Translations under genes and position numbers: made by a program | From: an uncultured Verrucomicrobiae bacterium | GTDB lineage: Bacteria; Verrucomicrobiota; Verrucomicrobiia; Chthoniobacterales; UBA10450 | Length of the DNA: 64,000 bases | Direction of reading: 5' to 3' | Assembly (NCBI GenBank): GCA_963756875.1 | Contig: CAVWPA010000003.1 | Location: 1,088,001-1,152,000, forward strand | The notes under the pieces: generated by a model | Told to the model about the DNA's origin: nothing | The model's database searches: none | Seen by the model: only the letters and a program-made list of their open reading frames with translations | Shown here: piece after piece, positions 20,775 to 45,537 of the stretch | How positions within the stretch are numbered: the first letter of the stretch is position 1 | Layout of the letters: each line of letters starts with the position of its first letter

Positions 20775-22163
20775 ATGAGTATGCCTCCCGTGCTCACCGG
20801 GGCGGCGCGCACCCCTTCGCGACGCCGCATGAGCAGCAGCGAAGATCAATCAATTGGCGCCCCCGACGTTTTAAAAACGATCGAGCAGCACATTCTGCTC
20901 GACGGTTTCAAAATCGTCATCGACCTGGAAAAGAGTCGCGGCCCTTATCTATACAACGCCATTAGCGGACGGCCCCTGATCGATCTCTACGGATTTTTCG
21001 GGTCGATGCCGGTGGGGTTCAATCATCCATATTTCGAGCAGGCCGAGGTTCAACGCGATCTTCTACGCGCGGCAAAAGTGAAAATCGCAAACTCGGACGT
21101 TTACTCAGCGGGTTATGCGGAATTTGTTGAAGCATTTTCCAGAGTAATGGGATTGCCGCCGCTGGATCGTTATTTACTGATCGAAGGCGGCGCGCTCGCG
21201 GTCGAAAATTGTTTGAAAGCGGCGATGGATTGGAAGGTGCGAAAGAACATGGCGGCTGGCCACGGCGAGCGCGGCACCGAAATCTTGCATTTCCGCCGCG
21301 CCTTTCACGGCCGCAGCGGCTACACCATGAGCCTCACCAATACCGATCCGCGCAAGACCGACCTGTTTGCAAAGTTCGATTGGCCGCGTGTTTCCTGCCC
21401 GCACATTGATTTTTCGCTGCCGGAGTCGAAGCGCGAAGCCGATGTCATCGAGCGTGAGAAGAAATCCGAAGCGGAGATCCTGGCCTGCCTCGAAACGCGC
21501 AAGATCGATATTTGCGCCATCATTATTGAGCCGATCCAGGGCGAAGGTGGCGACAATTATTTTCGCGGCGAATGGTTAAAAAAGCTGCGCGAGATCTGCG
21601 ATGGCAACGACATCCTCCTCATTTTCGACGAGGTGCAGTGCGGCATGGGCGCAACCGGACGCAATTGGTGCTGCGAGCATTTCGGTGTGTTGCCAGACCT
21701 GCTTGCGTTCGGAAAAAAAGCGCAAGTTTGCGGAGTGATGGCCGGCCCGCGTCTTGATGAAGTGAAAGACAACGCGTTCCGCTTGCCGGGCCGGCTAAAC
21801 TCGACCTGGGGCGGCAATTTTACCGACATGGTTCGCTCCACGCATTACCTGCGCATCATCGAAGAGGAGCATCTCGTTGAGAATGCGGCAAAGGTCGGCG
21901 CGTATTTCCTCGATCAACTGCGCGAAGTGCAAAACGAATTTGACGTCATCAAGGGAGCGCGCGGACGCGGAATGCTTCTGGCGTTCGATTTGCCCGATCC
22001 CAAAACGCGCGAGGAAATGTGGAAGGGGCTATTCGATCTTGGCGTCCTGACATTGCGTTCCGGCGAGCGATCAATCCGTTTCCGTCCCGCGCTCGATATG
22101 ACGGCGGGCGTCGTCGACGAGGCGATCCAGCTGATGCGCAAATACTGCCGGGAGCGAAAATGA
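20775..22163 (+). CDS. lat: L-lysine 6-aminotransferase
   Basis: Class III PLP aminotransferase: HILLDG, NSDVYS, GGALAVENCLKAAMDWK, AFHGRSGYTMSLTNT, DEVQCG, FGKKAQVCG, STWGGN. Confidence 0.92.
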   Translation: MSMPPVLTGAARTPSRRRMSSSEDQSIGAPDVLKTIEQHILLDGFKIVIDLEKSRGPYLYNAISGRPLIDLYGFFGSMPVGFNHPYFEQAEVQRDLLRAAKVKIANSDVYSAGYAEFVEAFSRVMGLPPLDRYLLIEGGALAVENCLKAAMDWKVRKNMAAGHGERGTEILHFRRAFHGRSGYTMSLTNTDPRKTDLFAKFDWPRVSCPHIDFSLPESKREADVIEREKKSEAEILACLETRKIDICAIIIEPIQGEGGDNYFRGEWLKKLREICDGNDILLIFDEVQCGMGATGRNWCCEHFGVLPDLLAFGKKAQVCGVMAGPRLDEVKDNAFRLPGRLNSTWGGNFTDMVRSTHYLRIIEEEHLVENAAKVGAYFLDQLREVQNEFDVIKGARGRGMLLAFDLPDPKTREEMWKGLFDLGVLTLRSGERSIRFRPALDMTAGVVDEAIQLMRKYCRERK

Positions 22164-22173
22164 CGATAAACCG

Positions 22174-22227
22174 CTGCAGCCGCGGTCGCTGACCGCGGAG
22201 AAGCCGCAGCCAGCGGCAGCGGCTACA
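22174..22227. repeat. GTAG-type REP doublet between lat and pcd
   Basis: CTGCAGCCGCGGTCGCTGACCGCGG...GCAGCGGCTACA. Confidence 0.6.
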
Positions 22228-22233
22228 ACAATT

Positions 22234-23781
22234 ATGAAAACCACGCTCGAAAAACTCGGCATCGCCGACGAAAATCCCGGCGTCTTTTGCGGGGAATGGC
22301 GAGGAGGCGGTGCGAAGATCGACAAAATTTCGCCCATTGACGGCCGGAAACTCGCAAGCCTACATACGGCGTCCGGAGAGGATTACGACGCGGCAATAGG
22401 CCGTGCGCATGAAGCGTTTTTGAAGTGGCGCGTGACGCCCGGTCCTGTGCGTGGCGAAACGGTGCGCCGTCTCGGCAACGCGCTTCGCGAAATGAAACAT
22501 GAGCTGGGCCAGCTCGTGACGCTCGAGACAGGGAAGATCATTGCCGAAGGCGAAGGCGAAGTGCAGGAGATGATCGATATTTGCGATCTCGCCGTCGGCC
22601 AATCGCGGATGCTTTACGGCCTGACGATCCAGTCGGAACGCCCGAACCATCGCTTAATGGAGCAATGGCATCCGCTGGGTGTCGTCGCCGTGATCAGCGC
22701 ATTCAATTTTCCGGTGGCGGTTTGGTCGTGGAACGCCGCGCTCGCGGCGGTTTGCGGCGACGCGACCGTCTGGAAGCCGTCGGACAAGACACCGCTCACT
22801 GCGATCGCGGTCACAAAAATCGCGGAGCGCGTATGCCGCGACACCGATGCCGACCCGGCCATCTTTACTCTGCTCGCGGGCGACCGCAAAACGGTTGGAC
22901 AAAAACTGGCGGACGACGCGCGGATTCCGATGGTATCGGCTACGGGCTCGGTGAACATGGGGTTGAACGTGGCGAAAGCTGTCCATGGCCGGTTAGGCAG
23001 AACGATCATGGAACTCGGCGGCAATAATGCGCTGATCGTTACGCCGACCGCCGATATCGAGATGGCGACGCAATCGATCTTCTTCGGCGCGGTCGGTACC
23101 GCCGGGCAACGTTGCACTTCGACACGGCGCGTGATCATGCACGAATCGATTGCCGACAAGATTCGCAAGAAACTGTTGGCCGCTTACAAGAGTCTGCCCA
23201 TCGGGAACCCGCTCGACAGAAAGACGCTAATGGGTCCGTTGATCGACAAGGGCGCGGTCGACATGGTGCAGCAATCCGTCCAACGATTGAAAGACGAAGG
23301 CGGTGAAGTCCTTTACGGAGGCGAACGTTTGGAAGGTCCGCAATACCCGGGCGGCGCCTACATGACGCCGTGTCTGGCGAGTGCGACGCCCGATTTTGAG
23401 ATTGTATGTCACGAAACGTTCGGCCCGCTGCTTTATTTGATGACCTATCGCGATTTCGATGAAGCGATCGCGATCCAAAACGGCGTGCCGCAGGGATTGA
23501 CGTCGTCGATCTTCACCAACGACGCGCGCGAGGCGGAGAAGTTCATGAGCGCAGCCGGGAGCGATTGTGGAATCGCGAACGTGAACACCGGCACCAGCGG
23601 CGCGGAAATCGGCGGCGCGTTTGGCGGCGAGAAGCAAACCGGCGGCGGCCGCGAAAGCGGAAGCGATTGCTGGAAGCAGTACATGCGCCGGCAGACGAAC
23701 ACGATCAATTTTTCGAGCGAGCTGCCGCTCGCACAGGGCATTCATTTCGGCGGCCCGGACGAAGGCAGCTCGACCGCGTAG
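22234..23781 (+). CDS. pcd: Piperideine-6-carboxylate/2-aminoadipate-semialdehyde dehydrogenase (ALDH7 family)
   Basis: GEVQEMIDICD, SERPNHRLMEQWHPLG, GTAGQRCTS, SGAEIGGAFGGEKQTGGGRESGSD; follows lat. Confidence 0.9.
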   Translation: MKTTLEKLGIADENPGVFCGEWRGGGAKIDKISPIDGRKLASLHTASGEDYDAAIGRAHEAFLKWRVTPGPVRGETVRRLGNALREMKHELGQLVTLETGKIIAEGEGEVQEMIDICDLAVGQSRMLYGLTIQSERPNHRLMEQWHPLGVVAVISAFNFPVAVWSWNAALAAVCGDATVWKPSDKTPLTAIAVTKIAERVCRDTDADPAIFTLLAGDRKTVGQKLADDARIPMVSATGSVNMGLNVAKAVHGRLGRTIMELGGNNALIVTPTADIEMATQSIFFGAVGTAGQRCTSTRRVIMHESIADKIRKKLLAAYKSLPIGNPLDRKTLMGPLIDKGAVDMVQQSVQRLKDEGGEVLYGGERLEGPQYPGGAYMTPCLASATPDFEIVCHETFGPLLYLMTYRDFDEAIAIQNGVPQGLTSSIFTNDAREAEKFMSAAGSDCGIANVNTGTSGAEIGGAFGGEKQTGGGRESGSDCWKQYMRRQTNTINFSSELPLAQGIHFGGPDEGSSTA

Positions 23782-24017: not shown

Positions 24018-25453
24018 TCAGCGTGCGATCGTCAGCCCGAGAAGTTCGTCGACTTTCTTCGCGGCATCGAGATTCATGATGGCCTTCTGCAACTTCTTGC
24101 ATCGGTCCTTGCCGATCACGTCGCCGCCCAGCGCGTTGAATTTCACCGCGATTTCGTCCTCGGTCATGGGATCGCGCGGATCGCCTTTTGGAACATCGAC
24201 ACGCGTGGAGTGCGATTTGCCGTCATTCGTGGTGATCGTCACACGGCTCGGCTGAAACTTCGGAAACAGCGCTTCGAATTCTTCGTTAGGCACTACCTTG
24301 ACCTTGTCCATAATCGGAATGAGCGCCTTGTCGCGCACGCGTTCCTCCTTGAACTGCAACGGCGTTACCATGCCATCGACCAAACCGGCGGCCATGCAGT
24401 AGGGGAGGGAATGATCCGCAGTTTCCTTGGAATCCGGCCGATACTTGTGCGGGTCGCCCAGAATGTCCGCGGCACGCGCGATCACTTCCACTTTGATTTC
24501 CTTCACGTCACCGGCCTTGATGTTGTGTTCTTTTACGGTCTTCATCATGGCGGTGAGCGGCGAATGACTGAGCGCTTCGATCGGGAAACTCTTCATCCCG
24601 CAATCGAGAATCCGGTAATGAGACTTCGGTCGAGTCGGGAAGGTCTGTGACCAAGCGCTTCGCCATCGAAAGTTGCGGGCTCGCCCTTGTATTGCACATG
24701 ATGGAAGACCGCGAACAAGCCTTCCTTCCCGTCAATGATGTGTTCGGGGCCCGAAAATCCATCGAGTGCCAGGAGCGCGCTCTCGACGCCCATGCGTCCG
24801 GCCCATGGATCGACTGTGTTTTTCATGTTGGTCAGTTTGCCCGCGGTTACCGCGCCCGGACAAAACGTTCGAGACGCGCTGATGCCGATCGCGGAAACCA
24901 TCTGCGCCGGCGTCAGGTTGAGCATGCGGCCGGCAGCGACCGGCGCCGCAAACGCGCTCAAGGTTGCGTGATGCCAACCGTACTCGCGCACACCCGGACG
25001 TCCGATTTCGCAAAGCCGCATCTCGATTTCGTAGGCGATGATCGTGGCGAGGATCAGATCCTTGCCGCTCAGTCCTTCACTCTCGCAAAGCGCAAGTGGC
25101 GCCGCGATGAGATCGCTCGGATGACACGGATCGGCTTTCCAATAAATGTCGTTGTAATCCATGGAACGGATCATGTGACCGTTGAGAAACGCAGCATCGA
25201 CCGGGTTGGTCTTGAATCCGGAGACGAACGCGGTGGCCTTGCCGCTGCCGCTCCCCATCGCGCGGTAATGCTTCATTAAAATTATCGCATCTTCCTGCTG
25301 ACTCCCGCCAAGCGCGCAGCCGATGGAATCGAACCAAAATAATTTCGCGGCTTGAATCGCCTCCGGCGAAAGATGCTCGTATTTTAGCGAGCAAGCCCAG
25401 TCGGCGATGGTGTAGGATAAAAGGTGCTTTGAATCAGTCGATTGCTTTGTCAT
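24018..25453 (-). CDS. MmgE/PrpD-family dehydratase (frameshifted near 24625-24655 as sequenced)
   Basis: FDSIGCALGG, MDYND, CHPSD in the 5' ORF; GMKSFP, ETADHSLPY, PKGDPRDP in the 3' ORF; span is 3n+2. Confidence 0.88.
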
Positions 25454-30883: not shown

Positions 30884-32043
30884 TCAAGAACTCGCGTAAT
30901 TGGCAATGGCCTTGGCCACTTCTAACGTCGAATTTTTGCCGCCCATGTCGTAGGTGCGGACTTTGCCTTCGGCGATGACGCGGGCAATCGCGGTTTCCAG
31001 CCGCGTCGCCAATTCGGTTTCCTTGAGCCAATCGAGCATGAGCTTGGAAGTCAGGAGCATGGCAATCGGATTCACCTTGTACTGACCAGCGTATTTCGGC
31101 GCCGAGCCGTGGGTCGGCTCGAACACGGCGTAGTTGTCGCCGAGGTTTGCGCTGGGCGCGAAGCCCAGTCCGCCGACCAGGCCGGCGCATAGAGTCGCTC
31201 ACGATGTCGCCGAACATGTTTTCCGCGACGAGCACGGAATAATCCTGCGGGTTTTTAAACATCCACATGCAAATGGCGTCGATGTTCGCTTCGTCGGCCC
31301 GGATGTCCGGATAATTTTTGGCCACGTCGTTGAAACAACGCATCATCAACCCGCCTGTTTCGCGGAGCACGTTTGGTTTCTCGATCAGCGTGACGCGTTT
31401 GCGCCCGGTTTTCTTGGCGAACTCGAAGGCTTGTTTGCAGATGTTGGTGCAACCCTGTTTGCTCATGATGCGGGTCGAGAGCGCGATGTTCTCCAGGCCC
31501 GCTTTGTCTTTCCACTTTTTCATCTTCGGGTTTGCGCAAAGCGCCGTGTAAACCGGTTCAGGCAACGGGAAAAACTCGACGCCGCCGTACATGCCTTCGG
31601 TGTTTTCCCGGAACACGACCTGATCGATCGGGACGTCTTCGCCGCTCGGGTTCGTGATCTTTGTGCCGCGATAATTCAGCGGATTGCCGGGATAACTTTT
31701 GCACGGCCGCATGTTCGTGTGGAGGTTGAACATCTGGCGGAGGCCCACGATGGGAGAGAAATAAACCAGGCCCTTGCCCTGAAGTTCCGGAGCCAGTTCC
31801 TGTTTGGCTTTGTCCTGCGGTTTGCTGGTGATCGCGCCGAACAGGCCGCAAGTCGTTTCCTTCAGGTACTTTTACGGTGCGATCGGGAAGCGCGTTGCCT
31901 TCCTTGCACCAAAATTCCCAGCCGATGTCGCACGGCACATATTCGGCATCGAGTTTTAGACGATCCAAAACGAGGCGCGCAGCCTCCATGACATCGTGAC
32001 CGACGCCATCGCCGGGCATCCACGCAATTTTGTATTTAGCCAT
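30884..32043 (-). CDS. Homoisocitrate-dehydrogenase-like beta-decarboxylating dehydrogenase (frameshifts near 31866 and 31193 as sequenced)
   Basis: [54 protein letters not shown] distributed over three frames. Confidence 0.85.
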
Positions 32044-32375: not shown

Positions 32376-34360
32376 CTACAGCTTCGCCTTTGCGCGGAGG
32401 CGGCTGCCCACGAGATTTTCGGCGCCGCCGGCAACGATCAATTCCTGGGCGGCGGGACTGAGCGGCGGGAAGGGGAACGATTTGCCGTCCACGGTCAGGA
32501 TCGACTTGGCGTAGTCGATCGTGATTTCTGGTCCGACCGTGGTCGGCTTGCGGTCCTTGAGCGTTTCGCGCAGATACGCCACCAGCTCCGGGCATTCAAA
32601 TACCACGAAGCCGTTGTTGAACGCGTTGCGTTTGTAGGTCTCGGAAAAGCTGGCGGCGATGACGCAGGGGATGCCTTTGAATTTCAATGCGGTCGCGGCC
32701 TGCTCACGGCTCGAGCCGGTCCCAAAATTCAGGCCGCCCACCACGACGTCGCCTTTTTGATAAAGCGTGTTGAAGTTCGGATCGAAGTTTTCAAACGTGA
32801 CCGCCGCCATCTGTTCGGGCGTCATGTCGTCGCGATACGTGTGTTTGCCGGCGTAAATGCCGTCGGTGTTCAAGTTATCCTGATCCACAAAAAGAACGCG
32901 GCCGCGCACGCTCGGCGGGAAACCATCGATGATCTCCACCGATGACGAGGGCTTCGATTTGGCTTGTGCGCGTCGAACAGCGGTGCCGGCAGGGCGGTCG
33001 GCAAAATCTTTTGGAGCGCAAATGAATCCGGCCAGCGCACTGGCTGCGACGACTGCGGGCGAACCCAGATACACGAACGCATCTCGATCGCCCATGCGGC
33101 CCTTGAAATTGCGGTTGGTGGCGCTGATCGCGGTTTCACCCTTTTGCACCAGGCCGCGGCCCAGACCGATGCACGTCCCGCAACCGGGTGGCAACGGAAT
33201 CGCACCCGCGTCCACGAGTGCCTGCCAATCGCCCACCGATTGGGACTTGGATTGCACTTCGGCGCTCGCGGCCGCCAGATAAAACTCGACGCCATTGGCA
33301 ACGTGTCCGCCCTGCGCGCGCACAACGTCCGCGGCATCGTGCAAATCTTCGAAGCGCGCGTTCACGCACGACAACAAATAGGCTTTCTGAATGGACACAT
33401 GCTTGCGCTGCATTTCGGGAAGCGACACCATCGTTTTCACTTCGTTAGGTCCCGAGACATGCGGAACCACGGTCGCAAGATCGAGCTCCAGTTCGATGGC
33501 GTACTCCGCGTCCGCGTCGGCGGCGATCTCGTTCCGATCTTCCCACCACTCGTCGATGTCGGCGTTGGTATAACCGGACCGGCTCTTTCGGACCGCGCGT
33601 TCCCGGCCGATTGGGATTAGTGAACGTGGGGACGCGCGAACGCAGATAACGCACCGTGACCGCATCGAACGGGAACACGCCCGCGAGCGCGCCCCACTCG
33701 GTTGTCATGTTGGCGACGGTCATGCGCGCGTCCATGGAAAGGGTTGCCACGCCGTCGCCTGCAAATTCCACGGCATGATTGAGCACCTCATCCTTATTAA
33801 AGAGACCGCACAACGCGATGATGACGTCCTTGCCGGTAACGCCGGGCGAAAGTTTTCCTTTGAGCACCACCTTTGCCACTTTCGGGACCTGCCACCATGT
33901 GACGCCGGTGGCCCAAATACTCGCGGCATCGGTCCGCACTACCGGTGTCCCGAGCGCCGCGACGGCGCCGTATAAATTAGAGTGCGAATCGCTGGCCACC
34001 ACGAGCGCGCCGGGAACAACGTAGCCTTGTTCCACCATTACCTGGTGCGAGATACCCGTGCCGGCCGGGTAGAAATCGACTCCTTGTTCGGCCGCGAACT
34101 TCTGGATGTTCGCGTACTTCTCCAGATTCTTCGGAGACGTATTTTGAATGTCGTGATCGATGGCGAACACCGGTTGCCCCGGGTCCGCGATCGCGGTCGC
34201 GCCGATCTGCTTGAACTTCGGGATGACGGCGGCGGTGTTGTCGTGCGTCATCACATGCCGCGGGCGAATGGAAATAAAATCGCCCGAACGTACGATCGTC
34301 GCCGGGGGCGAGTCCATCAGCGTGCCGAGTCGCGATCTTTTCTACGAGCGTGAGTCCCAT
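32376..34360 (-). CDS. lysF: Single-chain homoaconitase, fungal Lys4/LysF type (frameshifts near 34300 and 33588 as sequenced)
   Basis: HVMTHDN, DHDIQN, ASDSHSN, GTPVVRTDAASIWATG.TWWQVP, ANMTTEWGAL, SCVNAR, CGTCIGLG, SATNRNFKGRMG, DNLNTDGIY, NFGTGSSREQAATAL. Confidence 0.88.
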
Positions 34361-35706: not shown

Positions 35707-35793
35707 ACAAGCTGGCCAACAAGGCTACGAGGCGCTCGACTTGAAGAAGCGCAGCGCGCCGCGTCTCCCCAACCAGCGTGAGGCCCATATCGC

Positions 35794-36000
35794 TTATCCT
35801 ATGTTGATTTCCTTTCCGTAAAGACGTTTGAACAGTTGCTTTCGCTGCTCCGATTCCGATAACCCCCGTGGCAGCGACGCTTTTACCATTTCCCTCGCGC
35901 TATCGAACATTTGCGCGCCCATCACAAAGCGTTCTTCGCCGGAAAGAGCCATTAATTTTTCGCGCATCACTCGTTCGATGTTGGGCGCAGTATCGGTCAT
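35794..36000 (-). CDS. Small helical protein, putative antitoxin (Rv0078B/MenA1-like)
   Basis: 68 aa, MTDT...LMALSGEERFVMG; ATGA-coupled to the nucleotidyltransferase gene. Confidence 0.6.
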   Translation of the reverse strand: MTDTAPNIERVMREKLMALSGEERFVMGAQMFDSAREMVKASLPRGLSESEQRKQLFKRLYGKEINIG

Positions 36001-36533: not shown

Positions 36534-36561
36534 CGAACCGGCTGGGATCAGCGATCCCCGG

Positions 36562-37173
36562 CTACAGCTTCTTCGCCGCGCGTTTGCCGAGGAGTTTGGC
36601 GATATCGAAGTCCACGAAGTCGGCGTGATGAAAAATGATCGACTCGATGGAGCGTTCGACTTTGTCACCTTCATGGCTGTGCGTGGCGATGATGTGCATG
36701 ACTTCGCCGGGAATCCCGTGTTTGTACGCGAGCGCAACACCGCTGAACGGATGCCGCAGTTGTTGCCCGAGTTTTCCCTGGACTACTTTGCCGGATGCGT
36801 CCTTGTCGTACTCCAACGGCTTCCCCACGTCGGCCAGAAGCGCACCCGCGATGAGATAGTCTCGCTGGACCGGAATGCCGCAGCGGAACGATTTTTCGAG
36901 CACATCGGCGATGGCGATGCATTGCAACGCGCAGGAATTCAGATGCTCGACGAACGTCATGTCGATGTCGCCGGCGAGGAGCGTGAACTTGACCGCCCGC
37001 AGTTCGTCAAAGGTCCAACCTTTCCCACCGCAGCCGGTTGTAATGGCTTCGTTCCAGACCGCCGCCACTTTTTCGCGCAGCGACTTGTCGCTGATCTTTA
37101 GCAAGCTGGGGAAGAGGTCCGCGATTTCGTTAACGCCGTAATTGGTTCTTTGGGTCGTAGTCATAATGATCAC
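36562..37173 (-). CDS. HD-domain-like phosphohydrolase (HDIG family)
   Basis: FVEH, GALLADVGK, LRHPFSG, HIIATHSHEG, FHHADFVD. Confidence 0.82.
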   Translation of the reverse strand: MIIMTTTQRTNYGVNEIADLFPSLLKISDKSLREKVAAVWNEAITTGCGGKGWTFDELRAVKFTLLAGDIDMTFVEHLNSCALQCIAIADVLEKSFRCGIPVQRDYLIAGALLADVGKPLEYDKDASGKVVQGKLGQQLRHPFSGVALAYKHGIPGEVMHIIATHSHEGDKVERSIESIIFHHADFVDFDIAKLLGKRAAKKL

Positions 37174-37463
37174 GCGGCTTTCCGCCGATATTTTTGAGGC
37201 TTTGAAGAAGTTCGTTCTATTATTTTTCTAGCTTCCAGATCGAGTTTAACCGTTTCTGCATACCAACTGATACTTCCTGAAAATCTGTTCTTCAGGCTCT
37301 TGTTAACCTTTTCGGATAATTGGGTGTGGGTAAGCTGCTTATTTTGCAAGGCGGACAAGATGGCTTTCTTAAGCGTCTCGTATTTCCCCTTGTCGATATT
37401 TTTCCCGCTCTTACCCAATGGGTGTTTGGTGAGTATTTTTTCTTCTGTCATTTGCCTCTCCAT
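37170..37463 (-). CDS. DUF6958-like small basic protein
   Basis: HPLGKSGKNIDKGKYE, FSGSISWYAETVKLDLEARKIIER; visibly more AT-rich than its neighbours. Confidence 0.7.
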   Translation of the reverse strand: MERQMTEEKILTKHPLGKSGKNIDKGKYETLKKAILSALQNKQLTHTQLSEKVNKSLKNRFSGSISWYAETVKLDLEARKIIERTSSKPQKYRRKAA

Positions 37464-37479
37464 TCATGATTGACGACTA

Positions 37480-38448
37480 ATGAACACGAATCACACGAAT
37501 AGCGGAATGACTTTTTGCCGATGGATTGGGGTTTCGATGGTATGTGCAGGAACGATACTTGCGCGGCCGCCGGGCGGCCCAGGCGGGCCTCCCAACAATA
37601 GCCGTGTGAAAATGGATCTTCCATCGCGGGTGTCGATCCGCACCGAAGGCGAACGCCGGATCATCGAGAGCAATGGGATTCCCGACCATGAAACGGGGAC
37701 GTTTCCCGGCCCGGGAAATCCCAATGCGATCATGGCGCAAAATTATCACTTTGAAACCACAACGCATCCCACGAAAGCGGCCCATCCCATGTCGATCCGG
37801 AGGTGGCTTTTTGGCGTCGCCATCGACGGCGTGGTGTTCGATCCCGGGACTGCGGATTACTGGCGCAACGACCGCAATTCCGTCTGGAACGTGGAAGGAA
37901 TCATCGACGGACGGCGCACGTTGGGGATCGATTGGAGCGACGCGCACGTGCAACCAAACGGCGCCTATCATTACCACGGCGTCCCCTGGGGCATCCTGCA
38001 AAAACATCATGCGGAAAAAAAGATGTTCCTGGTTGGGTGGGCGGCGGACGGGTTTCCGATCTACGGACCGTACGCCTACAAGGATCCGAATAATGCTTCG
38101 AGTCCGGTGGTTGAAATGAAATCGTCGTACCGGCTGAAGAGCGGAATGAGGCCCGCGGGGAACGAGGGACCGGGAGGACGTTACGACGGAACGTATACCG
38201 GCGATTACGAATATGTAGCAGGGGCGGGAGATTTGGATGAATGCAACGGACGCACGGGAGTGACGCCGGAGTTTCCAGGAGGGACGTATTATTATGTGGT
38301 GACCGAAACCTTCCCGATCGTGTCCCGTTATTTCCGTGGGACACCCGACCCGAGTTTTCGGCATCCGTTCGATCCCGCGCGCGGACGCGGCCCGGGCGGA
38401 CCAGGAGCACCGGGCGGTCGGCCGCCACCGCCATTCCGTAACCACTAA
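37480..38448 (+). CDS. YHYH-domain secreted protein
   Basis: SNGIPDH, FGVAIDGVVFDP, AHVQPNGAYHYHG, GWAADGFPIYG, DLDECNGR; start 37480 or 37507. Confidence 0.9.
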   Translation: MNTNHTNSGMTFCRWIGVSMVCAGTILARPPGGPGGPPNNSRVKMDLPSRVSIRTEGERRIIESNGIPDHETGTFPGPGNPNAIMAQNYHFETTTHPTKAAHPMSIRRWLFGVAIDGVVFDPGTADYWRNDRNSVWNVEGIIDGRRTLGIDWSDAHVQPNGAYHYHGVPWGILQKHHAEKKMFLVGWAADGFPIYGPYAYKDPNNASSPVVEMKSSYRLKSGMRPAGNEGPGGRYDGTYTGDYEYVAGAGDLDECNGRTGVTPEFPGGTYYYVVTETFPIVSRYFRGTPDPSFRHPFDPARGRGPGGPGAPGGRPPPPFRNH

Positions 38449-38871
38449 TAAACACGAATGGACACGAATGACGGAAAGCTGGTGGCCAAAGAAGAGGTGT
38501 TTCGCATTGTCGGCTGTGCGATCGAGGTTCTTAACGCGCTTGGGCACGGCTTGGTTGAAAAGCCATACGAAAATGCGTTAGCGGTAGAGTTTGGTCTGCA
38601 AAATATGCCTTTTCGGCAGCAGCCTTCGTTCGACGTTTTTTATAAGGAGCATAAGGTAGGTCTCTTCATTCCCGACTTAATCGCATTCGACACCGTTGTG
38701 GTGGACACAAAGGTGATTGATCGAATCACCGATCATGAGCGTGGATTGATGCTGAACTACCTTCGAATCACGAATCTGCGCGTTGGAGTTGTCCTGAATT
38801 TCAAACGTCCCAAACTAGAGTGGGAGAGAATTATTTTATGAATTTGTGTTCATTCGTGTCCATTCGTGGTT
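38440..38871. mobile_element. Candidate element: GxxExxY gene flanked by 30-bp imperfect inverted repeats
   Basis: 38440-38469 AACCACTAATAAACACGAATGGACACGAAT versus reverse complement of 38842-38871 AACCACGAATGGACACGAATGAACACAAAT (25/30 by eye). Confidence 0.55.
38458..38841 (+). CDS. GxxExxY protein (PD-(D/E)xK nuclease superfamily)
   Basis: GLVEKPYENAL, IPDL...VVVDTK, LNYL, GVVLNF. Confidence 0.92.
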   Translation: MDTNDGKLVAKEEVFRIVGCAIEVLNALGHGLVEKPYENALAVEFGLQNMPFRQQPSFDVFYKEHKVGLFIPDLIAFDTVVVDTKVIDRITDHERGLMLNYLRITNLRVGVVLNFKRPKLEWERIIL

Positions 38872-40574
38872 AGAGATCTAGGCGGCGGGCCGTCGTAGCC
38901 ATGCTTGACCGGATCGATTCGCCGCATCGGTTTCTCGCGGGTTTGTTCTTCGATCACGTGTGCCACAAGTCCGGGAGTTCGCGCGATCATGAAGATTCCG
39001 TTGAACGCCGCCGGGTCCATTCCCAGATCGGCAAGGATGGCGCCGATCGCGCCGTCTACGTTGATCGGCAGCGCTTTTTTCGCATCGGCGAACGATTTCT
39101 CGACGGCTCGCGCCGCTTTCATGTGCGCTCCGTCGACGCCGGCCTTCCGCGCCAGCTCGAACAAACGTGCCGTGCGCGGGTCCCTGGTGTGATAGCGATG
39201 GCCAAAACCCGGCATGCGGTCGCCGCTCTCTCTCATCTCCGCCAGAGTGCGTGTAGCCGCTTCATCCATTGAAATGGATTCGCACGTGGCGCGGTCCGCG
39301 ATCTTTTTTAGTTGTCGGGCGCAATCTTCGATCGCGCCGCCATGATGACGATTGATCGACATGATTCCGGCGGCGACCGACGCGCTGAGCGACGCGCCGG
39401 TGGACGCAACCGTTCGCGCGGCCAACGCGCTCGGCGGCGTCGCGCCATGATCGATCGACGATACCAGGATCGCATCCATCAATTGTCCGATCGCGGGCGA
39501 CGGCAGTTCGCCGGTCAAAATTAAATACACCGCTGCGCCAAATGAAACGCGTCCCATCAGATCGGCGATGTCATATCCGCGCACGGCGACCCGGTTCGGT
39601 TCGATTTGCGTTACTGCGGTGTTCCAGACCGCATTCTTGTCAGTTTCGCTCATAAGACTCTGTCCTTTCATTTGCTTGAGAATTTCAACCACGGCATCCG
39701 GCAGGTCGCCGAACGCATCGACTACGGTGGCGCCTGCTTCGCGCAGCGCTTTCACTTTGCCAGCGTGCGTGCCCCGACCGCCTTCAATGATCGCTCCCGC
39801 GTGACTGAAACGCGTGCCTTCGCGTGCCGCTTTACCGCCGATATACGCAATCACCGGCTTCGTCATTTTTCGATCGCGAATCAGTTGCGCCAGTTCCTCT
39901 TCCTGTGACGAACCAATTTCGCCAAAGATGACGACGGCTTCGGTGAGCGGGTCGGCTTCAAACATCAGAGCCGCGTCGGGGATACGAATTCCAAGAACGG
40001 CGTCGCCGCCAATGTGCGCGATGGTTGAAATGCGCACGCCGGCTTGCCCGAGATAGTAGCCGGTGCTCGAAGCCATCCCGCCGGATCGACTGATCACGCC
40101 AACACCTTTCGGAATGCCCGGCTTGAACCATTGCTTCGCACTTTCGGCGCGACCGCCGATCATGCCGGCCACGGCCTTGCCCGGGCTCAACACTCCAAGC
40201 GTGTTCGGTCCCAGAAAAATCGCGCCATTCGCTTTGGCCGCGGCGGCGATCTCCATGGCGTCCCATACTGGAACGCGATCGGGCACGAGCACGGTCAGCT
40301 TGATTCCCGCGTCGATGGCGGAAATTGCCGCTTCCTTCACACCCGCGGCGGGCACAAAGATTACGGAGATGTCGATTTGGCCGAGAGCCTTTACCGCGTC
40401 CTGCGGCGTATTGAACACGGGCACGCCGAAGACGGCCTGTCCGCCTTTACCCGGTGTGACGCCGGCGACCACGTTGGTTCCGTACTCGCGCATGAGGCGC
40501 GTGCGCGCCCGGCCTTCGCGGCCAGTGATTCCCTGCACCAGGACGCGCTTGGTTTCGTCGATTAAAATTGCCAT
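38850..40574 (-). CDS. SucD-like CoA-ligase alpha domain fused to a citryl-CoA-lyase/citrate-synthase-like domain (AclA-like)
   Basis: VLVQGITG, GVTPGKGG, GPNTLG, SRSGG, phospho-His FSHAGA; C-terminal DHGATPPS, HHGGAI, PGFGHR, INVDGAI. Confidence 0.9.
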   Translation of the reverse strand: MAILIDETKRVLVQGITGREGRARTRLMREYGTNVVAGVTPGKGGQAVFGVPVFNTPQDAVKALGQIDISVIFVPAAGVKEAAISAIDAGIKLTVLVPDRVPVWDAMEIAAAAKANGAIFLGPNTLGVLSPGKAVAGMIGGRAESAKQWFKPGIPKGVGVISRSGGMASSTGYYLGQAGVRISTIAHIGGDAVLGIRIPDAALMFEADPLTEAVVIFGEIGSSQEEELAQLIRDRKMTKPVIAYIGGKAAREGTRFSHAGAIIEGGRGTHAGKVKALREAGATVVDAFGDLPDAVVEILKQMKGQSLMSETDKNAVWNTAVTQIEPNRVAVRGYDIADLMGRVSFGAAVYLILTGELPSPAIGQLMDAILVSSIDHGATPPSALAARTVASTGASLSASVAAGIMSINRHHGGAIEDCARQLKKIADRATCESISMDEAATRTLAEMRESGDRMPGFGHRYHTRDPRTARLFELARKAGVDGAHMKAARAVEKSFADAKKALPINVDGAIGAILADLGMDPAAFNGIFMIARTPGLVAHVIEEQTREKPMRRIDPVKHGYDGPPPRSLTTNGHE

Positions 40575-42143
40575 TTAGCGCGTGCCTTCCGCTGTTTGAC
40601 GACCCCGAAAGCTTTCGGGGCCAATCAACTTGTCGAGACTTGGAATCTCAAGTTCGAGATAAAATCCGTCGACTCCAGCAAGCCGACACTCAACATCGCA
40701 TGCGAGCAACTCGGAATCTTTTGTAGCGAACTCTTCGCTCGGCAATGCAGCCGCAGGCACGCCTTTCCGATCCACGATCAACCCACCCGAGTGGGTCTCG
40801 ACGGCCGCGCGAATTTCGTTCCACTTCGAGGCATCGATCCATACCTGGCCGCCTTTTACTGAAAATTTGGTAGCCGATGAATTTTTGACGAACTTCGGCA
40901 TACGCGGAGCGCGTGGTTTCCATTTCGTGCCGTCTGCGCTGGCGACGAGATCCGCAAAACGCTCGGCGATGAAGGCTGGAGTGTCGGTTTTGCGATAGCC
41001 CTCAAGCGGCGCGCGAAGTAGTTTCGACATTCGCTGCAAAATATCCACGGCGCGATCTTCGGCGTTGCCGCCTAACCGAATTACCGCGGGAATATTCAGG
41101 TCAAGTTCCCAAAACGCCTTGGCCAGTCCGTAAGCGGACCAATATTGTTCCTGGCTCGCGACGCCCGAGCCCGACCCGAAATATCCGACGAGATCAGGTT
41201 GAGCCAGAATGATTCGGCTGGCGCGATACACTTTGGACGCGGATGGATTGCCGCTGGTGTCGGTGAAATTGGCAATGGTGAATCCCGCGTTCACGATGGC
41301 GTCCATCGACATCATCGACCCGCCACCGCCGGCGCCGTGAAACCCGGCAAGCCCTTTGGAACCCTTTGGGCATTCCGTCGCCAACTGCGCAAAATAAAAT
41401 GTGCCGCGATGATCGCTTTGTTCCACGGCGTAAGCCACGCGCTCAAGAGCCGTGGGCGGATGATCGAATTCTCTGGCAATTTCAATTCCAAGATCAGGAT
41501 GTCGCGCCACCGCGTAATCGTCGATCGTGATCCGACAATCGGCGGCGACGAACTCGTCATTTTTCGTCAGCACCAGCGGGTTGATCTCCAGCGACCTGGC
41601 TTCAACGCTACGGGCGGCGGCAAATAATTTTCGGATTGAATCGGCCAGTTTGGCCGCTTGCGCCGTGGAAAGTTTGCACGAAGCGACAGTTTCGCTGACG
41701 GCCGAATCGAGTGGGCCGCTATTCACGTCGCAGGGAATACGCCGCGTCGAAGCTGCGCGTTCTTCGATTCCAGTGCCTCCTCCGCCGGCAAAAATAATTA
41801 CCGGAGCGCGGGCGGCATCATCGATCGCTAACGAAAGAAAGAATTCCCGGTCGATGTCGAGCTTCTCTTCCACAAGAACGGCATCGACCGGAAACTGTCC
41901 AACCTTCATCGCCAGCATCCGCGCGGCGTGATCGCGAATGTCGTTTGGCTTTTTGGCGAACGCGACCCCGCCGATGCCGGCGCGTCCGGTGGTCCAGGCC
42001 TGAATCTTGACGACTACTTCGCCGCCGAGTTCCTTCGCCGCCGTCACGGCGTCATCAGCGGCAAAAGCCGCCCGGCCGCGCGGAATCTTGAATCCGCTCC
42101 GCGCAAGAATGGCTTTGCCTTGATATTCGTGAAGTCGGGCCAT
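40575..42143 (-). CDS. ATP-grasp CoA-ligase beta subunit (SucC/AclB-like) with C-terminal extension
   Basis: MARLHEYQGK, VVKIQAWTTGR, LEINPL, GAGGGGSM, ANFTDTSGNP, VIRLGG; abuts the alpha gene. Confidence 0.88.
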   Translation of the reverse strand: MARLHEYQGKAILARSGFKIPRGRAAFAADDAVTAAKELGGEVVVKIQAWTTGRAGIGGVAFAKKPNDIRDHAARMLAMKVGQFPVDAVLVEEKLDIDREFFLSLAIDDAARAPVIIFAGGGGTGIEERAASTRRIPCDVNSGPLDSAVSETVASCKLSTAQAAKLADSIRKLFAAARSVEARSLEINPLVLTKNDEFVAADCRITIDDYAVARHPDLGIEIAREFDHPPTALERVAYAVEQSDHRGTFYFAQLATECPKGSKGLAGFHGAGGGGSMMSMDAIVNAGFTIANFTDTSGNPSASKVYRASRIILAQPDLVGYFGSGSGVASQEQYWSAYGLAKAFWELDLNIPAVIRLGGNAEDRAVDILQRMSKLLRAPLEGYRKTDTPAFIAERFADLVASADGTKWKPRAPRMPKFVKNSSATKFSVKGGQVWIDASKWNEIRAAVETHSGGLIVDRKGVPAAALPSEEFATKDSELLACDVECRLAGVDGFYLELEIPSLDKLIGPESFRGRQTAEGTR

Positions 42144-42180: not shown

Positions 42181-42329
42181 GGGTAGCGCACGCGTCTCGC
42201 GTGCTGGCGAGCGCGTCCTCGCGATCGCGAACTTTTTCCAGTAATCATTATTGGTCACTTCAGTCCAATCAAAGAAAAGACTGTTTCGGCGAGACGCCAA
42301 AACCAGCACGCGAGACGCGTGCGCTACCC
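42181..42329. repeat. REPIN/MITE-like palindromic element, family A
   Basis: GGGTAGCGCACGCGTCTCGCGTGCTGG...CCAGCACGCGAGACGCGTGCGCTACCC in the divergent intergenic region. Confidence 0.85.
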
Positions 42330-42409
42330 AGACACCTGACCTTGCGGCTTGATCTTATTGATCGCGGATGGCGGGCGTAATAGTGTCGATCCAACCGAAG
42401 GCGCGCTGC

Positions 42410-43585
42410 ATGACCTCAACCTCGCTCGATTATTACGGCATTGAAGAGCTTTTGAGCGACGAAGAACGCGCGGCGCGCGATCGGGCGCGGCGTTTTGTGC
42501 AGGATGAAGTAATGGATCAAGTCGTGCCGTATCATCGGGCGGGCAAGTTTCCCGAACATCTTACGCCGCGCATGGGCGCGTTACGTTTCTATGCGCCGTA
42601 CTTAAAAGAACACGGCTGCGCGGGGCTGAGCTACACGGCCTACGGCTTGATCATGCAGGAGCTGGAACGAGCTGACTCTGGCCTTCGTTCACTGGCATCG
42701 GTGCAGGGCGCGCTTGTCATCCACGCAATTCATTCCTTCGGCACGCCGGAACAGCACGCGCAGTGGCTGCCGGGACTGGTGTCGGGCGAACGCGTTGGTT
42801 GTTTCGCGCTGACCGAACACGGACACGGCTCGGACCCTGGCGGGATGGAAACCCAGGCCAAACGCGATGGCGATCATTATGTTTTGAACGGCAGTAAGTG
42901 CTGGATCGGTAACGCATCCATCGCGGACGTGAAAGTCGTGTGGGCGAAGGACGACGACGGACGCGTGGGCGGATTCATTGTGGAGAAGGATGCTCCCGGA
43001 TTCCGCGGGCAGGACATCGAGGGAAAGTTCAGCTTGCGCATGTCGCGCACGTCGGAGTGCTGGTTCGAAAACTGTCGCATACCAGCGGAAAGCCGGCTGC
43101 CGAAGGCGAAGGGACTGCGCGCACCGCTGTCGTGTCTTTCACAGGCGCGGGTGGGCGTGGCGTGGGGAGTGATTGGCGCGGCCATCGATTGTTACGAAAC
43201 GGCGCTGGCGTATGCGAAATCGAGAGAACAGTTCGGCCGTCCAATTGCCGGGTTTCAACTGGTACAGGAAAAACTTGTCTGGATGGTGCAGGAGATTACC
43301 AAGGCGCAATTGTTAGCGCTCCGTCTTACTCGCATGATGGAAAAAGGCACGGCACGTCCCGCCCAGATTTCGCTGGCGAAGCGGAACAACGTGTGGATGG
43401 CGCTGGAATGCGCGCGAAAGGCGCGCGACATCCTAGGCGCCGCGGGTATCACGGATCGCTATTCGGTGATTCGCCACCTCATGAACCTTGAGAGTGTCTA
43501 CACGTATGAAGGGACGCACGACGTCCACGCGTTGGTGATCGGCCACGACATCACAGGGCTCGACGCCTTTGGCGGCTCTTCATGA
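42410..43585 (+). CDS. gcdH: Glutaryl-CoA dehydrogenase-like acyl-CoA dehydrogenase
   Basis: ELERADSGLRS..SVQGAL, GCFALTE..HGSDPGGM, KFSLRMS, AKRNNV, HLMNLESVYTYEGTHDVH. Confidence 0.82.
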   Translation: MTSTSLDYYGIEELLSDEERAARDRARRFVQDEVMDQVVPYHRAGKFPEHLTPRMGALRFYAPYLKEHGCAGLSYTAYGLIMQELERADSGLRSLASVQGALVIHAIHSFGTPEQHAQWLPGLVSGERVGCFALTEHGHGSDPGGMETQAKRDGDHYVLNGSKCWIGNASIADVKVVWAKDDDGRVGGFIVEKDAPGFRGQDIEGKFSLRMSRTSECWFENCRIPAESRLPKAKGLRAPLSCLSQARVGVAWGVIGAAIDCYETALAYAKSREQFGRPIAGFQLVQEKLVWMVQEITKAQLLALRLTRMMEKGTARPAQISLAKRNNVWMALECARKARDILGAAGITDRYSVIRHLMNLESVYTYEGTHDVHALVIGHDITGLDAFGGSS

Positions 43586-43598
43586 TAGACTGCGCGAT

Positions 43599-44111
43599 AT
43601 GAGTCACATGGATTGGGACGCGATCAGCGCAATCTCGCAAATGATTGGCTCGGTTGCGGTAGTTCTCTCCGTCCTTTATCTCGCCTTTCAAGTGCATCAA
43701 AGCACGCGCGTAGCAAAGTTGGCCGCGCAGGATGCTGCGGCAACGTCACTCCGTGAGGTGACGAGACCGTTTGCTGAGAATGCCGATCTGGCTCGGGTTT
43801 GGCGAATAGGGCTTGAGGATTTGCAATCGTTGTCGGCGGAGGAACAGGCGCGTTTCTTCCATTCCACTTATCAATTTCTCAAGGCATTCGAAACGATTCA
43901 CTTTCACCATATCCATGGAGTGATGGACGAGCAGATCTGGCAAGGATGGTCCGGCCTTCTTCAGCACTACATTGCGTCTCCCGGGATGGATCATTACTGG
44001 CAGCTGCGTCACGATCTTTTCTCAGTTCGGTTTCAGCAGTTTATCCATTCGCTCGAGCGTCCGACTGAGCGCCGCACGGTTGGTAATCTGTTGGGGCAAG
44101 AGAATCGGTGA
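43599..44111 (+). CDS. Hypothetical membrane-anchored protein
   Basis: MDWDAISAISQMIGSVAVVLSVLYLAFQV N-terminal TM followed by a helical domain. Confidence 0.7.
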   Translation: MSHMDWDAISAISQMIGSVAVVLSVLYLAFQVHQSTRVAKLAAQDAAATSLREVTRPFAENADLARVWRIGLEDLQSLSAEEQARFFHSTYQFLKAFETIHFHHIHGVMDEQIWQGWSGLLQHYIASPGMDHYWQLRHDLFSVRFQQFIHSLERPTERRTVGNLLGQENR

Positions 44112-44181
44112 GTCAGGAAAAGGTTTGTCGAACTCCTTCCCATATCACAGCGCTGGATGCCTTCGGCGGCTGACGATTGAA

Positions 44182-44256
44182 TTGTAGCCGCGGCGCTCTG
44201 TCGCCGCGTTGAGAATAAGCTGAGGATTACGCCTCGACACAGCGAGGCGGCTACAG
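44182..44256. repeat. GTAG-type REP doublet
   Basis: TTGTAGCCGCGGCGCTCTGTCGCCGCG...CGCCTCGACACAGCGAGGCGGCTACAG. Confidence 0.75.
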
Positions 44257-44301
44257 GAGTTGGATGACAGCGCGGGAAGATTCGTTAAGTTATTTGGAGC
44301 T

Positions 44302-45537
44302 ATGAACCCAGTTTATATTCTCGGCGGCGGGCGCACGGATTTTAAGCGCAACCTGAAGAAGGAAGGCAAAGCCATCCGGCACGTGATTGTCGAGGCCGGA
44401 AAAAAGGCGATCGACGATGCGAAGATCGATCCCGGGGAAATTCAGGCGGGCGCGGTTGGAAACTTCAACTCCGGGCAGTTCACCAAACAGCTGCACCTTG
44501 GCGCGTTTATTCCGGAGATCGACCCGAAGCTGCGCGGGATTCCCACCATGCACACCGAAGCGGCCTGCGCTTCCGGCGCGCTTTCCGTTTTGCTTGGCGC
44601 GGAATGGATCATGGGCGGTATTTACGACGTAGTGCTGGTGGTCGGCGCGGAACAGCAAAAAACGATGTCGGCGCTCGATGGCTCCGATGTCCTCGGCGCG
44701 GCGGCCGATTATCACAACGAAAGACCGGAATACGGCGATTTCATGTTTCCGAAATTGTTCGGGAAGATCGCGCAGATTTATATCGAAAAGTACGGCGCAT
44801 CCGCAGCGGACCTCGCGACGGTGGCGTGGAAGAACTACGCGCACGCCAAATTGAACCCGCTCGCCCAAATGCGCGACGCCGATGTGACTCTCGATTATGC
44901 ATCGCAGGTCTCCGATAAGAACCCGTGCGTGGCGGCGCCGCTGAAGGTTTCCGATTGTTCGCAGATCACCGACGGCTCCGCGTCGGTCGTCCTCGTTTCC
45001 GGGAAATACATGGAGAAGATCGGGCGCGACAAAAAGAAAACCGCGCGTCTGCTCGGCTTCGGTCACACCACCGATTATCTGGCGCTTGATAAAAAGGATG
45101 CGCCGACTTTTTCGATTGCGCGGAAGGCGGCTGAGAAAGCGCTCTTAATGGCGAACTTGAAACCACGCGACATGAATGGTGTGGAAGTGCACGATTGTTT
45201 CTCGATTACCGAAATTGTTGCTTATGAACTCCTCGGTCTGGCCGAGCCGGGGAAAGGGGCAGAGCTGGCCCGGAGCGGCGCGACGGCGTTGCCGCAAGTG
45301 CGCAATGAAAAGATGCGCGGCAAGTTTGCGTTTGAAATTCCGGTGAACGCGGGCGGCGGATTAATCGGTGATGGTCATCCGGTCGGAGCGACCGGGGTTC
45401 GACAGGTTGTGGAAGCCTATCAGCATCTCACCGGGCAGGCCGGTGCCCGGCAGATCCCGAACGCGAAGCGTTTCCTGACCTTCAACATGGGCGGCAGTCT
45501 TACGACTTCGGTGGCCATGGTCTGGGGACGTGAGTAA
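44302..45537 (+). CDS. Thiolase (acetyl-CoA C-acyltransferase, SCP2-type)
   Basis: EAACASG, DCSQITDG, EVHDCF, GHPVGATG. Confidence 0.9.
   Translation: MNPVYILGGGRTDFKRNLKKEGKAIRHVIVEAGKKAIDDAKIDPGEIQAGAVGNFNSGQFTKQLHLGAFIPEIDPKLRGIPTMHTEAACASGALSVLLGAEWIMGGIYDVVLVVGAEQQKTMSALDGSDVLGAAADYHNERPEYGDFMFPKLFGKIAQIYIEKYGASAADLATVAWKNYAHAKLNPLAQMRDADVTLDYASQVSDKNPCVAAPLKVSDCSQITDGSASVVLVSGKYMEKIGRDKKKTARLLGFGHTTDYLALDKKDAPTFSIARKAAEKALLMANLKPRDMNGVEVHDCFSITEIVAYELLGLAEPGKGAELARSGATALPQVRNEKMRGKFAFEIPVNAGGGLIGDGHPVGATGVRQVVEAYQHLTGQAGARQIPNAKRFLTFNMGGSLTTSVAMVWGRE

Follow-up and report, generated by a model that had tools for sequence, protein, structure and literature searches.

Relation to described ligases and lyases

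The closest described relatives of the enzyme considered here belong to the succinyl-CoA synthetase (SCS), citryl-CoA synthetase (CCS), and ATP-citrate lyase (ACL) superfamily. In Hydrogenobacter thermophilus, CCS and a separate citryl-CoA lyase (CcsAB, 6hxq; Ccl, 6hxp) comprise an ATP-grasp beta subunit, a SucD-like alpha subunit, and a stand-alone-type lyase of the citrate synthase fold; ACL is represented by AclBA of Chlorobium limicola (6hxj) and Sulfurovum mangrovi (WP_229937659/60), and the remaining comparators are SucCD and MtkAB. Ligase chemistry in this family, as set out in the accessible text of PMC13670275, passes through a phospho-histidine and an acyl-phosphate and is followed by retro-Claisen cleavage. 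Here we describe a two-gene pair (38850..42143, minus strand) in a 64,000-nucleotide stretch, referred to as the window, of contig CAVWPA010000003.1 (assembly GCA_963756875.1) from an uncultured Verrucomicrobiae bacterium of the order Chthoniobacterales. To judge from its sequence, the pair is not an ACL; it represents a new family, probably with a new substrate, inside a known kind of enzyme. Tentatively, at somewhat less than an even chance, we read it as an ATP-dependent (S)-homocitrate ligase/lyase that would release 2-oxoglutarate and acetyl-CoA as the last step of a route from 2-oxoadipate.

The beta frame (40575..42143) is open and directly adjoins the alpha-lyase frame. It encodes 522 amino acids (aa), divided on the basis of the open reading frame (ORF), Pfam, and AlphaFold into ATP-grasp and substrate-binding domains and a C-terminal tail. 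The alpha-lyase gene (38850..40574) encodes 574 aa, with a SucD-like alpha region (residues 1 to 300) joined to a Ccl-like lyase of the citrate synthase fold (residues ~317 to 574). An alternative beta start at 42248, taken from the ORF list, was rejected because it crosses a repeated palindrome and homologues align from the start at 42143. Pfam assigned ATP-grasp_2 to the beta subunit, with Citrate_bind below its cut-off (23.5 versus 26.8 bits), and CoA_binding, Ligase_CoA, and Citrate_synt to the alpha-lyase. The AlphaFold model of beta (pLDDT of 94) matched SCS, CCS, and ACL structures. Over its whole length beta was matched best by SucC in both sequence and fold (3ufx); the best PDB match of its substrate domain was CCS. 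The DHRG insert, GGGGS, and SGNP/GNP motifs of CCS are retained in that domain, and ANFTD-GNP is also shared with CcsAB. The alpha half carries the phospho-His motif FSHAG, and the lyase half retains DHG, HHGG, GFGHR, DPR, NVDG, ART, and PMRR. FSHAG supplies the phospho-His, and GFGHR and NVDG supply the catalytic His and Asp of the lyase, as these are listed in Table 2 of PMC13147460. The SRSGG and phospho-His motifs and the predicted chemistry are common to the pair and AclBA.

The beta subunit differs from the citrate enzymes in its substrate loop. Residues 322 to 333 (41145..41180, minus strand) read FGSGSGVASQEQ and align with GGAIANFT in ACL (6hxj), GGTANNT in CCS (6hxq), and NIFGGI in SucC; the alignment to these references was made partly through an intermediate protein, P0264. 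Downstream, IRLGGN (residues 355 to 360; 41064..41081, minus strand) replaces VRRGGP or VRRNGP. In PDB-based alignments, the window's GSGVASQEQ...IRLGGN thus stands against GGAIANFT...VRRGGP in Chlorobium ACL, with which the Sulfurovum AclB motifs agree, and GGTANNT...VRRNGP in Hydrogenobacter CCS. We take the second Arg of RRxGP to have a role in citrate binding, and human ACLY Asn346, Thr348, and Arg379 to be the counterpart residues that grip citrate. In the accessible text of PMC13670275 these human residues are named only in the context of docking. Of the 157 loci that span the loop, 154 keep ASQEQ, and none has ANFT/ANNT or the second Arg of RRxGP; in the window beta that Arg is Leu, as in SucC. 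The alpha subunit has its own departure, GMIGGR where SucD has GIMPG and ACL has NVGGT, and the Arg of this motif is present in 108 of 109 printed alpha rows. This Arg, which presumably lies close to the substrate, is a candidate stand-in for the lost beta Arg.

The original prediction had described an AclB/AclA organization with a noncanonical loop and about 130 extra residues in beta. The departure of the loop from the citrate type is confirmed by the alignments, and beta is 125 to 135 aa longer than SucC (388 to 397 aa). The domain layout likewise agrees with ACL, yet AclA is not the nearest match of the individual parts, and whether they are fused depends on the lineage. The alpha half matched archaeal SucD at an E value of 5e-74 versus 1.5e-51 for AclA, and the lyase half matched stand-alone Ccl (6hxp) at 2e-59 versus 2e-17 for AclA. 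Alpha and lyase form one protein in 64 of 106 loci and two frames in the other 42, a few of which may be frameshifts. Because they are unfused in so many loci, the ACL-like layout probably represents a separate fusion of a SucD-like and a Ccl-like protein.

Phylogeny, which had been proposed as a check, placed the beta subunit outside both the ACL/CCS and the SucC/MtkA clades and, together with the loss of the citrate motifs, upheld the view that this is no canonical ACL. In a 33-row LG+G4 tree (38 of 71 rows dropped), the beta family branch had support of 100/98, with 100/100 for both ACL plus CCS-like proteins and SucC/MtkA; a quick tree of all 71 rows was concordant. These trees hold a single, long-branched ACL, because a search for genuine ACL in the phylum of genome G051 gave one weak match in 41 genomes, and Hydrogenobacter CCS is replaced in them by stand-ins such as P0264 (E value of 5e-70 to 6hxq). 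An approximately unbiased (AU) test did not reject a sister relationship of the family to this one ACL (P = 0.15). All NCBIfam equivalog cut-offs for SucC, SucD, and MtkA were missed (197.9 versus 370; 150.1 versus 604), and the NIFGGI and GAGLAM motifs are missing from the window beta. The pair thus differs from SucCD/MtkAB in score, clade, and linkage to a lyase; from AclBA in lacking ANFT and RRGGP, in its SucD- and Ccl-like halves, and in a fusion that is not universal; and from CcsAB plus Ccl in its loop motifs, its separate clade, its fused lyase, a tail of Fe-S type, and an operon with a homoaconitase, a homoisocitrate dehydrogenase (HICDH)-like enzyme, PrpD, and an HD protein.

The pair probably does not indicate that CO2 is fixed through the reverse tricarboxylic acid (TCA) cycle. 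The warning in the original prediction that annotation could take it for such a marker holds for the lyase half, which exceeds two NCBIfam citryl-CoA lyase subfamily (PRK06224) cut-offs (268.6 versus 212 and 262.9 versus 245) and misses the equivalog NF004864 (219 versus 261), but not for the betas, which JGI labels "succinyl-CoA synthetase beta subunit." Because the lyase passes citryl-CoA lyase models and the beta subunit carries the succinyl-CoA synthetase label, using ccl/acl counts as markers of the reverse TCA cycle can lead a survey astray.

The closest relatives (~75 to 86% identity) come mostly from metagenome-assembled genomes titled Chthoniobacterales, "Candidatus Udaeobacter," or Verrucomicrobia, followed by Planctomycetota at 59 to 76%. 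No relative was found in viral contigs, and a plasmid collection gave, among the matches listed, only SucC, MtkA, and ACL at 24 to 45% identity and no member of this family. In a class-wide sample around genome G052, beta was present in 1 of 61 genomes (the center only); its distribution there is sporadic.

A decayed cysteine-rich tail

We read the extra ~130 residues of beta, on the basis of their relatives, as a decayed 2x[4Fe-4S]-type domain (residues ~405 to 510; 40614..40931, minus strand) with two Cys left. Relatives at 45 to 50% identity carry CxxCx4CxxxC...CxECLxC(E/D/Q)xxC in this position, and at least eight Cys were present in 58 of 59 full-length betas from metagenome loci, and the one outlier is closely related to the window type; close relatives have one to four Cys, mostly two. 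Fer4_9 matched 32 of 48 aligned tails at an E value of 0.01 or better. The window tail had no such match and no Pfam match of any kind, and its model (pLDDT of 92) gave no Foldseek match at an E value of 0.001 or better; a profile search matched an OorD-type subunit at an E value of 0.019. In a sister clade (L144, 1031-4396), a tail-less beta is accompanied by a separate 98-aa gene with eight Cys, an alpha gene, and a CitE-type lyase in place of the lyase of citrate synthase fold. The eight-Cys tail, which distant relatives retain and which has degenerated in this protein, suggests that a CoA ligase is regulated by redox state.

Conserved operon partners

On the 3' side of the pair and on the same strand lie genes for an HD-family protein, an aconitase, a decarboxylating dehydrogenase, and PrpD, interrupted by unrelated inserted genes. 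The HD-family protein (36562..37173), a conserved operon member, has AD in place of the HD motif, as do all aligned Chthoniobacterales and Planctomycetota copies and some distant ones, with HD in others; neither sequence nor profile searches revealed a PDB relative, and its Atlas matches were only unnamed HD clusters. The aconitase is a LYS4-type single-chain homoaconitase (32376..34360) with single-base insertions near 34296 and 33588. The intact orthologue in locus L022 scored 720 bits against the TIGR00139 cut-off of 529.9, which was also passed in L124 and in 26 genomes; the window copy is frameshifted.

The dehydrogenase (30884..32043; insertions near 31866 and 31194; 3' end approximate) resembles HICDH. 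Its substrate-helix motif SPIVxLR, found in 39 of 40 loci, matches YSSPIVALR of Schizosaccharomyces pombe HICDH (Lys12) and differs from GAIRYLR of Thermus HICDH and from SSLNVALR of the genome's own isocitrate dehydrogenase (IDH). Val versus Arg in this helix (Thermus Arg85) separates strict from dual-substrate enzymes; a literature search gave no confirmation of this. The enzyme missed the NCBIfam HICDH cut-offs (317 versus 540), and its best NCBIfam match, also below cut-off, was methanogen AksF. At the cofactor site it has APKY or APRY (39 of 39) versus APDI in Thermus HICDH, and we take KY as a sign of NADP by comparison with Lys344/Tyr345 of Escherichia coli IDH. An analogous RH-to-DI switch is described, for type II IDH only, in the accessible part of PMC4813160.

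The PrpD/MmgE-family dehydratase gene (24018..25453; one single-base insertion near 24630-24654) is distinct from the copy in the genome's prpDBC operon, to which the L022 orthologue is 34% identical. In nine distant loci, with no PrpD in the stretch fetched, there is instead a second, two-subunit HacAB-type aconitase with RD for HD (L132:17010-18814, and L092, L112, L117, L118, L123, L138, L140, and L141). With RDFGG replacing HDNSA and an unusual small subunit, it is, by its motifs, an uncharacterized aconitase subfamily.

Converging on the operon from the plus strand are genes for lysine 6-transaminase (lat) and piperideine-6-carboxylate dehydrogenase (pcd) (20775..23781), both of which passed NCBIfam cut-offs. 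Diverging from it, also on the plus strand, are genes for an acyl-CoA dehydrogenase and a thiolase (42368..45537). From its motifs we take the former to be glutaryl-CoA dehydrogenase-like; the tools gave only the family name.

The partners recur around the pair. Among 79 genome loci, many of them truncated, 39 have HD, 30 the aconitase, 28 the dehydrogenase, 15 PrpD, and 6 pcd; among 69 distant loci (45 to 50% identity) the counts were 19, 18, and 14 for the first three and 1 for PrpD. In about 20 close loci the pair adjoins mfd/surA/pdxA without partners. In L136 (3682-10932) and L111, a thiamine pyrophosphate enzyme, an Ldh_2-type dehydrogenase, and a 2-hydroxyacid dehydrogenase precede the ligase trio, an arrangement that may mark another substrate.

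Co-occurrence and host metabolism

We compared 49 family genomes (G006 was left out), 27 with beta and 22 without. LYS4-type homoaconitase was present in 26 of the 27 beta-positive genomes, the one miss being a 200-contig genome, and in none of the 22 beta-negative ones; the genomes are kin rather than independent, and the Fisher value for this link is an overstatement. The link held also where the genes are far apart. Genome G043 has two copies of beta and alpha-lyase on contigs C1 and C10 (L169 and L170), with HD, homoaconitase, and dehydrogenase apart on C5.

Since the source genome (87.6% complete) has gltA, acnA, IDH, and a separate prpDBC operon, the citrate-related jobs are filled elsewhere; 2-oxoglutarate dehydrogenase (E1) and isocitrate lyase are also present. 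No sucC was found in it at this completeness. Replacement of SucCD by the operon was rejected, as relatives carry canonical sucC together with beta. Most beta-positive genomes have lysA (25 of 27) and dapB (23 of 27), and the operon is therefore not needed for making lysine. A search for homocitrate synthase and for LysX, from the LysX/LysW back half of alpha-aminoadipate lysine biosynthesis, found each in none of five genomes, two of them rated 100% complete. With diaminopimelate (DAP) genes present and neither LysX nor homocitrate synthase found in the five genomes, a role in lysine biosynthesis is not supported. Since no homocitrate synthase was found, the carbon-carbon step that would accompany the homoaconitase and the HICDH-like enzyme has the adjacent pair as its sole candidate.

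A predicted route through (S)-homocitrate

The original prediction had named homocitrate as a candidate substrate, and the conserved context and the dehydrogenase motif make it the best guess. In the route that we propose, lysine would be converted to 2-aminoadipate by Lat and Pcd, whose family assignments are shown by sequence, and then to 2-oxoadipate by a transaminase. The dehydrogenase, to go by its motifs, would carry out an NADPH-driven carboxylation to homoisocitrate; the LYS4-type enzyme would form cis-homoaconitate; and the PrpD-like enzyme may hydrate this to (S)-homocitrate, a task that could fall to the altered second aconitase elsewhere. The ligase, using the phospho-His and acyl-phosphate chemistry of its family, would make homocitryl-CoA, and the lyase, with its catalytic residues in place, would cleave it in a retro-Claisen reaction. 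That homocitrate is the substrate we regard as somewhat more probable than not; that the direction is cleavage, with homocitrate as substrate, is somewhat doubtful.

Lyases of the citrate synthase fold share Si-face geometry, and homocitrate synthase forms (R)-homocitrate. A geometry check showed that Si attack of acetyl-CoA on 2-oxoglutarate yields S, and that the carbinol geometry of (S)-homocitrate equals that of C3 in (2S,3S)-methylcitrate. The S form is proposed because the lyase, if it keeps Si-face geometry, would pair 2-oxoglutarate and acetyl-CoA in this way. According to the accessible part of PMC3556520, fungal homoaconitases interconvert only homoaconitate and homoisocitrate, with housekeeping aconitases handling natural homocitrate, and PrpD performs a syn elimination on (2S,3S)-methylcitrate that is beyond aconitases. 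Because PrpD performs syn elimination, the S form would call for a dedicated PrpD, which the R form would make superfluous. Carboxylation and cleavage are favored because of the NADP-type motif and the lat/pcd neighborhood; in reverse-TCA organisms, NADPH use favors the reductive direction (accessible part of PMC13147460).

Two described pathways share elements with this route. The front half of the fungal and Thermus alpha-aminoadipate pathway (homocitrate synthase, Aco2/AcoA, Lys4/LysF, and Lys12) has the same LYS4-type homoaconitase and SPIVxLR dehydrogenase and, in the accessible part of PMC3556520, isomerization by two enzymes, as predicted here. In contrast to it, the carbon-carbon step here would be taken by an ADP-forming ligase and a lyase with no homocitrate synthase or LysX found, PrpD or an altered HacAB would stand in for the housekeeping aconitase, the cofactor motif is KY rather than the DI of Thermus HICDH, and the hosts keep DAP genes. 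The 2-methylcitrate cycle (PrpC, PrpD, AcnB/AcnD, and PrpB) likewise combines a carbon-carbon enzyme of the citrate synthase fold, PrpD, and an aconitase-family enzyme and has the S geometry predicted here at the carbinol carbon, but it has PrpB where the present operon has a decarboxylating dehydrogenase, and the genome's prpDBC operon is separate. No description of the enzyme or the route was found in the literature, in a search largely outside subscription journals and excluding supplements; for Udaeobacter, the matches listed were all unrelated papers.

If the assignment is correct, the SCS/CCS/ACL superfamily would gain a third specificity class of the tricarboxylate type, (S)-homocitrate would have a natural role, and the enzyme would be of use in adipate-related pathway engineering. 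The assignment would also define an undescribed lysine-to-TCA route with CO2 uptake, in 27 of 49 genomes of a common soil-bacterial family. A wider proposal extends this to the abundant soil Chthoniobacterales as a whole and, for the version with an Fe-S tail, to many bacteria unrelated to them. All of these would possess a homologue, longer by one carbon, of the carboxylation-cleavage segment of the reverse TCA cycle: 2-oxoadipate would be carboxylated with NADPH, isomerized by PrpD or an altered aconitase to the mirror-image (S)-homocitrate, and cleaved by the first ATP-homocitrate lyase, in a new CO2-fixing branch of lysine breakdown. This proposal is possible but doubtful.

Weighing the alternatives

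Several observations weigh against cleavage of (S)-homocitrate. The lysine link is local, since lat occurs in 46 of 49 genomes irrespective of the operon and in none of the 69 distant loci, of which one has pcd. Isomerization by two enzymes would be needed for (R)-homocitrate too. Direction appears weakly fixed: the citrate-analogue steps in Table 1 of PMC13147460 (+11.7, -6.8, and -8.0 kJ/mol) sum to -3.1 kJ/mol, which by analogy would be reversible, and NADP enzymes run oxidatively too. A glutaryl-CoA dehydrogenase-like gene, present in 26 of 27 beta-positive versus 10 of 22 beta-negative genomes, would offer an alternative exit for 2-oxoadipate and fits the opposite direction as well. A loop with Glu and a lost Arg does not look obviously suited to a tricarboxylate. 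In L130 (2075-13248) and L135, the ligase and lyase lie beside a fumarate reductase-like flavoprotein/Fe-S pair, a split fumarase, an aconitase, and an SPIV-type dehydrogenase, and the HD gene is missing from 12 of 29 distant loci with downstream room. Compared with relatives, this assembly shows a total of five single-base insertions in the genes for homoaconitase, dehydrogenase, and PrpD; its beta, alpha-lyase, and HD genes are intact. The same frameshift test on other genes found one clear split gene (near C3:1175198), and lysA is also in two pieces; the insertions may be assembly error or decay. A search of sequencing runs returned no RNA run among the matches listed. Replacement of the glyoxylate shunt was a further candidate, and it was rejected for want of an anticorrelation (isocitrate lyase in 20 of 27 beta-positive versus 14 of 22 beta-negative genomes), an outcome that also tells against the proposed route.

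The competing explanations differ in direction, substrate, or chemistry. Run the other way, the pair would join acetyl-CoA and 2-oxoglutarate with ADP and Pi to give (S)-homocitrate and ATP, and the partners would carry this on to 2-oxoadipate, CO2, and NADPH and then to glutaryl-CoA. Such an ATP- and NADPH-yielding homocitrate synthase route, serving 2-oxoglutarate breakdown or 2-oxoadipate supply, is in our estimate unlikely, if hardly negligible. It is accommodated by the near-equilibrium energetics, by the failure to find another homocitrate synthase in the five genomes, by the skewed glutaryl-CoA dehydrogenase-like gene, and by 2-oxoglutarate dehydrogenase E1 and 2-oxoacid:ferredoxin oxidoreductases (the latter in five of five genomes), and the isomerization equilibrium would lie far toward homocitrate only until the dehydrogenase pulls. 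Known synthases, however, use irreversible CoA hydrolysis; the combination of an ADP-forming ligase and a dehydrogenase of NADP type is characteristic of routes that carboxylate and cleave; and LysX was not found in the five genomes while DAP genes are present. We would give a similarly low probability to a different hydroxy acid, whether a (homo)n-citrate of greater length that serves to elongate 2-oxoacid chains, another 3-substituted tricarboxylate, or an acid of the malate type. In that case the HD protein would supply an intermediate or rescue one. The S-Q-E loop without Arg, an HD protein for which no characterized relative was found, the AksF match, the HacAB-type aconitases of distant loci, and neighboring clades in which the ligase is paired with CitE (L144) or other dehydrogenases (L136) are all consistent with this, but the homoaconitase clears a LYS4-type equivalog cut-off and the dehydrogenase motif is like that of fungal HICDH.

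Citrate itself is a poorer candidate still. A divergent CCS/CCL-type enzyme that, with an isocitrate-using dehydrogenase and the aconitase, formed a second reversible TCA module would account for the CCS match of the substrate domain, the complete set of catalytic residues in the Ccl-like lyase, the gene context in L130 and L135, the ferredoxin oxidoreductases, and the AU result. We consider it quite improbable, because the citrate motifs are missing from all 157 loci, CCS-like proteins and ACL lie across a 100/100 branch in the maximum-likelihood trees, the S-x-N found in the genome's IDH is absent from the dehydrogenase, and, given acnA, PrpD and homoaconitase would have no role in citrate turnover. 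Least probable by far is a dicarboxylate-CoA ligase for succinate, glutarate, or adipate formed by beta and alpha, with the lyase domain working separately. The SucC matches of beta in sequence and fold, the nearness of archaeal SucD to the alpha half, the RL in place of RR, and the failure to find sucC in this 88%-complete genome would suit such an enzyme; it is opposed by the missed SucC, SucD, and MtkA cut-offs, the placement of beta outside the SucC clade (100/100), the canonical sucC that relatives carry alongside, and a lyase adjacent or fused in 106 loci.

Mobile and repeated elements

A heavily frameshifted region elsewhere in the genome (C1:6000-16000), which contains the genome's only HMGL-family match together with pieces of pyruvate:ferredoxin oxidoreductase, may be foreign or unpolished; motif reading suggests that its HMGL-family gene may be citramalate synthase-like. 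Within the operon, the genes inserted between lyase, HD, and homoaconitase (34756-38448) encode a YHYH protein, a DUF6958 protein, an AbiEii-like nucleotidyltransferase (weak, E value of 0.002), and a PEP-CTERM NHL-repeat protein. Directly after the lyase and opposing the operon lies a GxxExxY/PD-(D/E)XK gene (38458-38841, plus strand). It varies in position and orientation in L020, L021, and L043, is skipped in contigs of two sequencing runs, and is a mobile cassette. A 23-base palindromic element occurs six times in the window (sites at 23838-24000, 27860-27882, 32129-32151, and 42181-42329), twice as inverted pairs, where none would be expected. The genome contains 75 matches to its 21-base core; the element resembles repetitive extragenic palindromes and marks joints of rearrangement between related strains.

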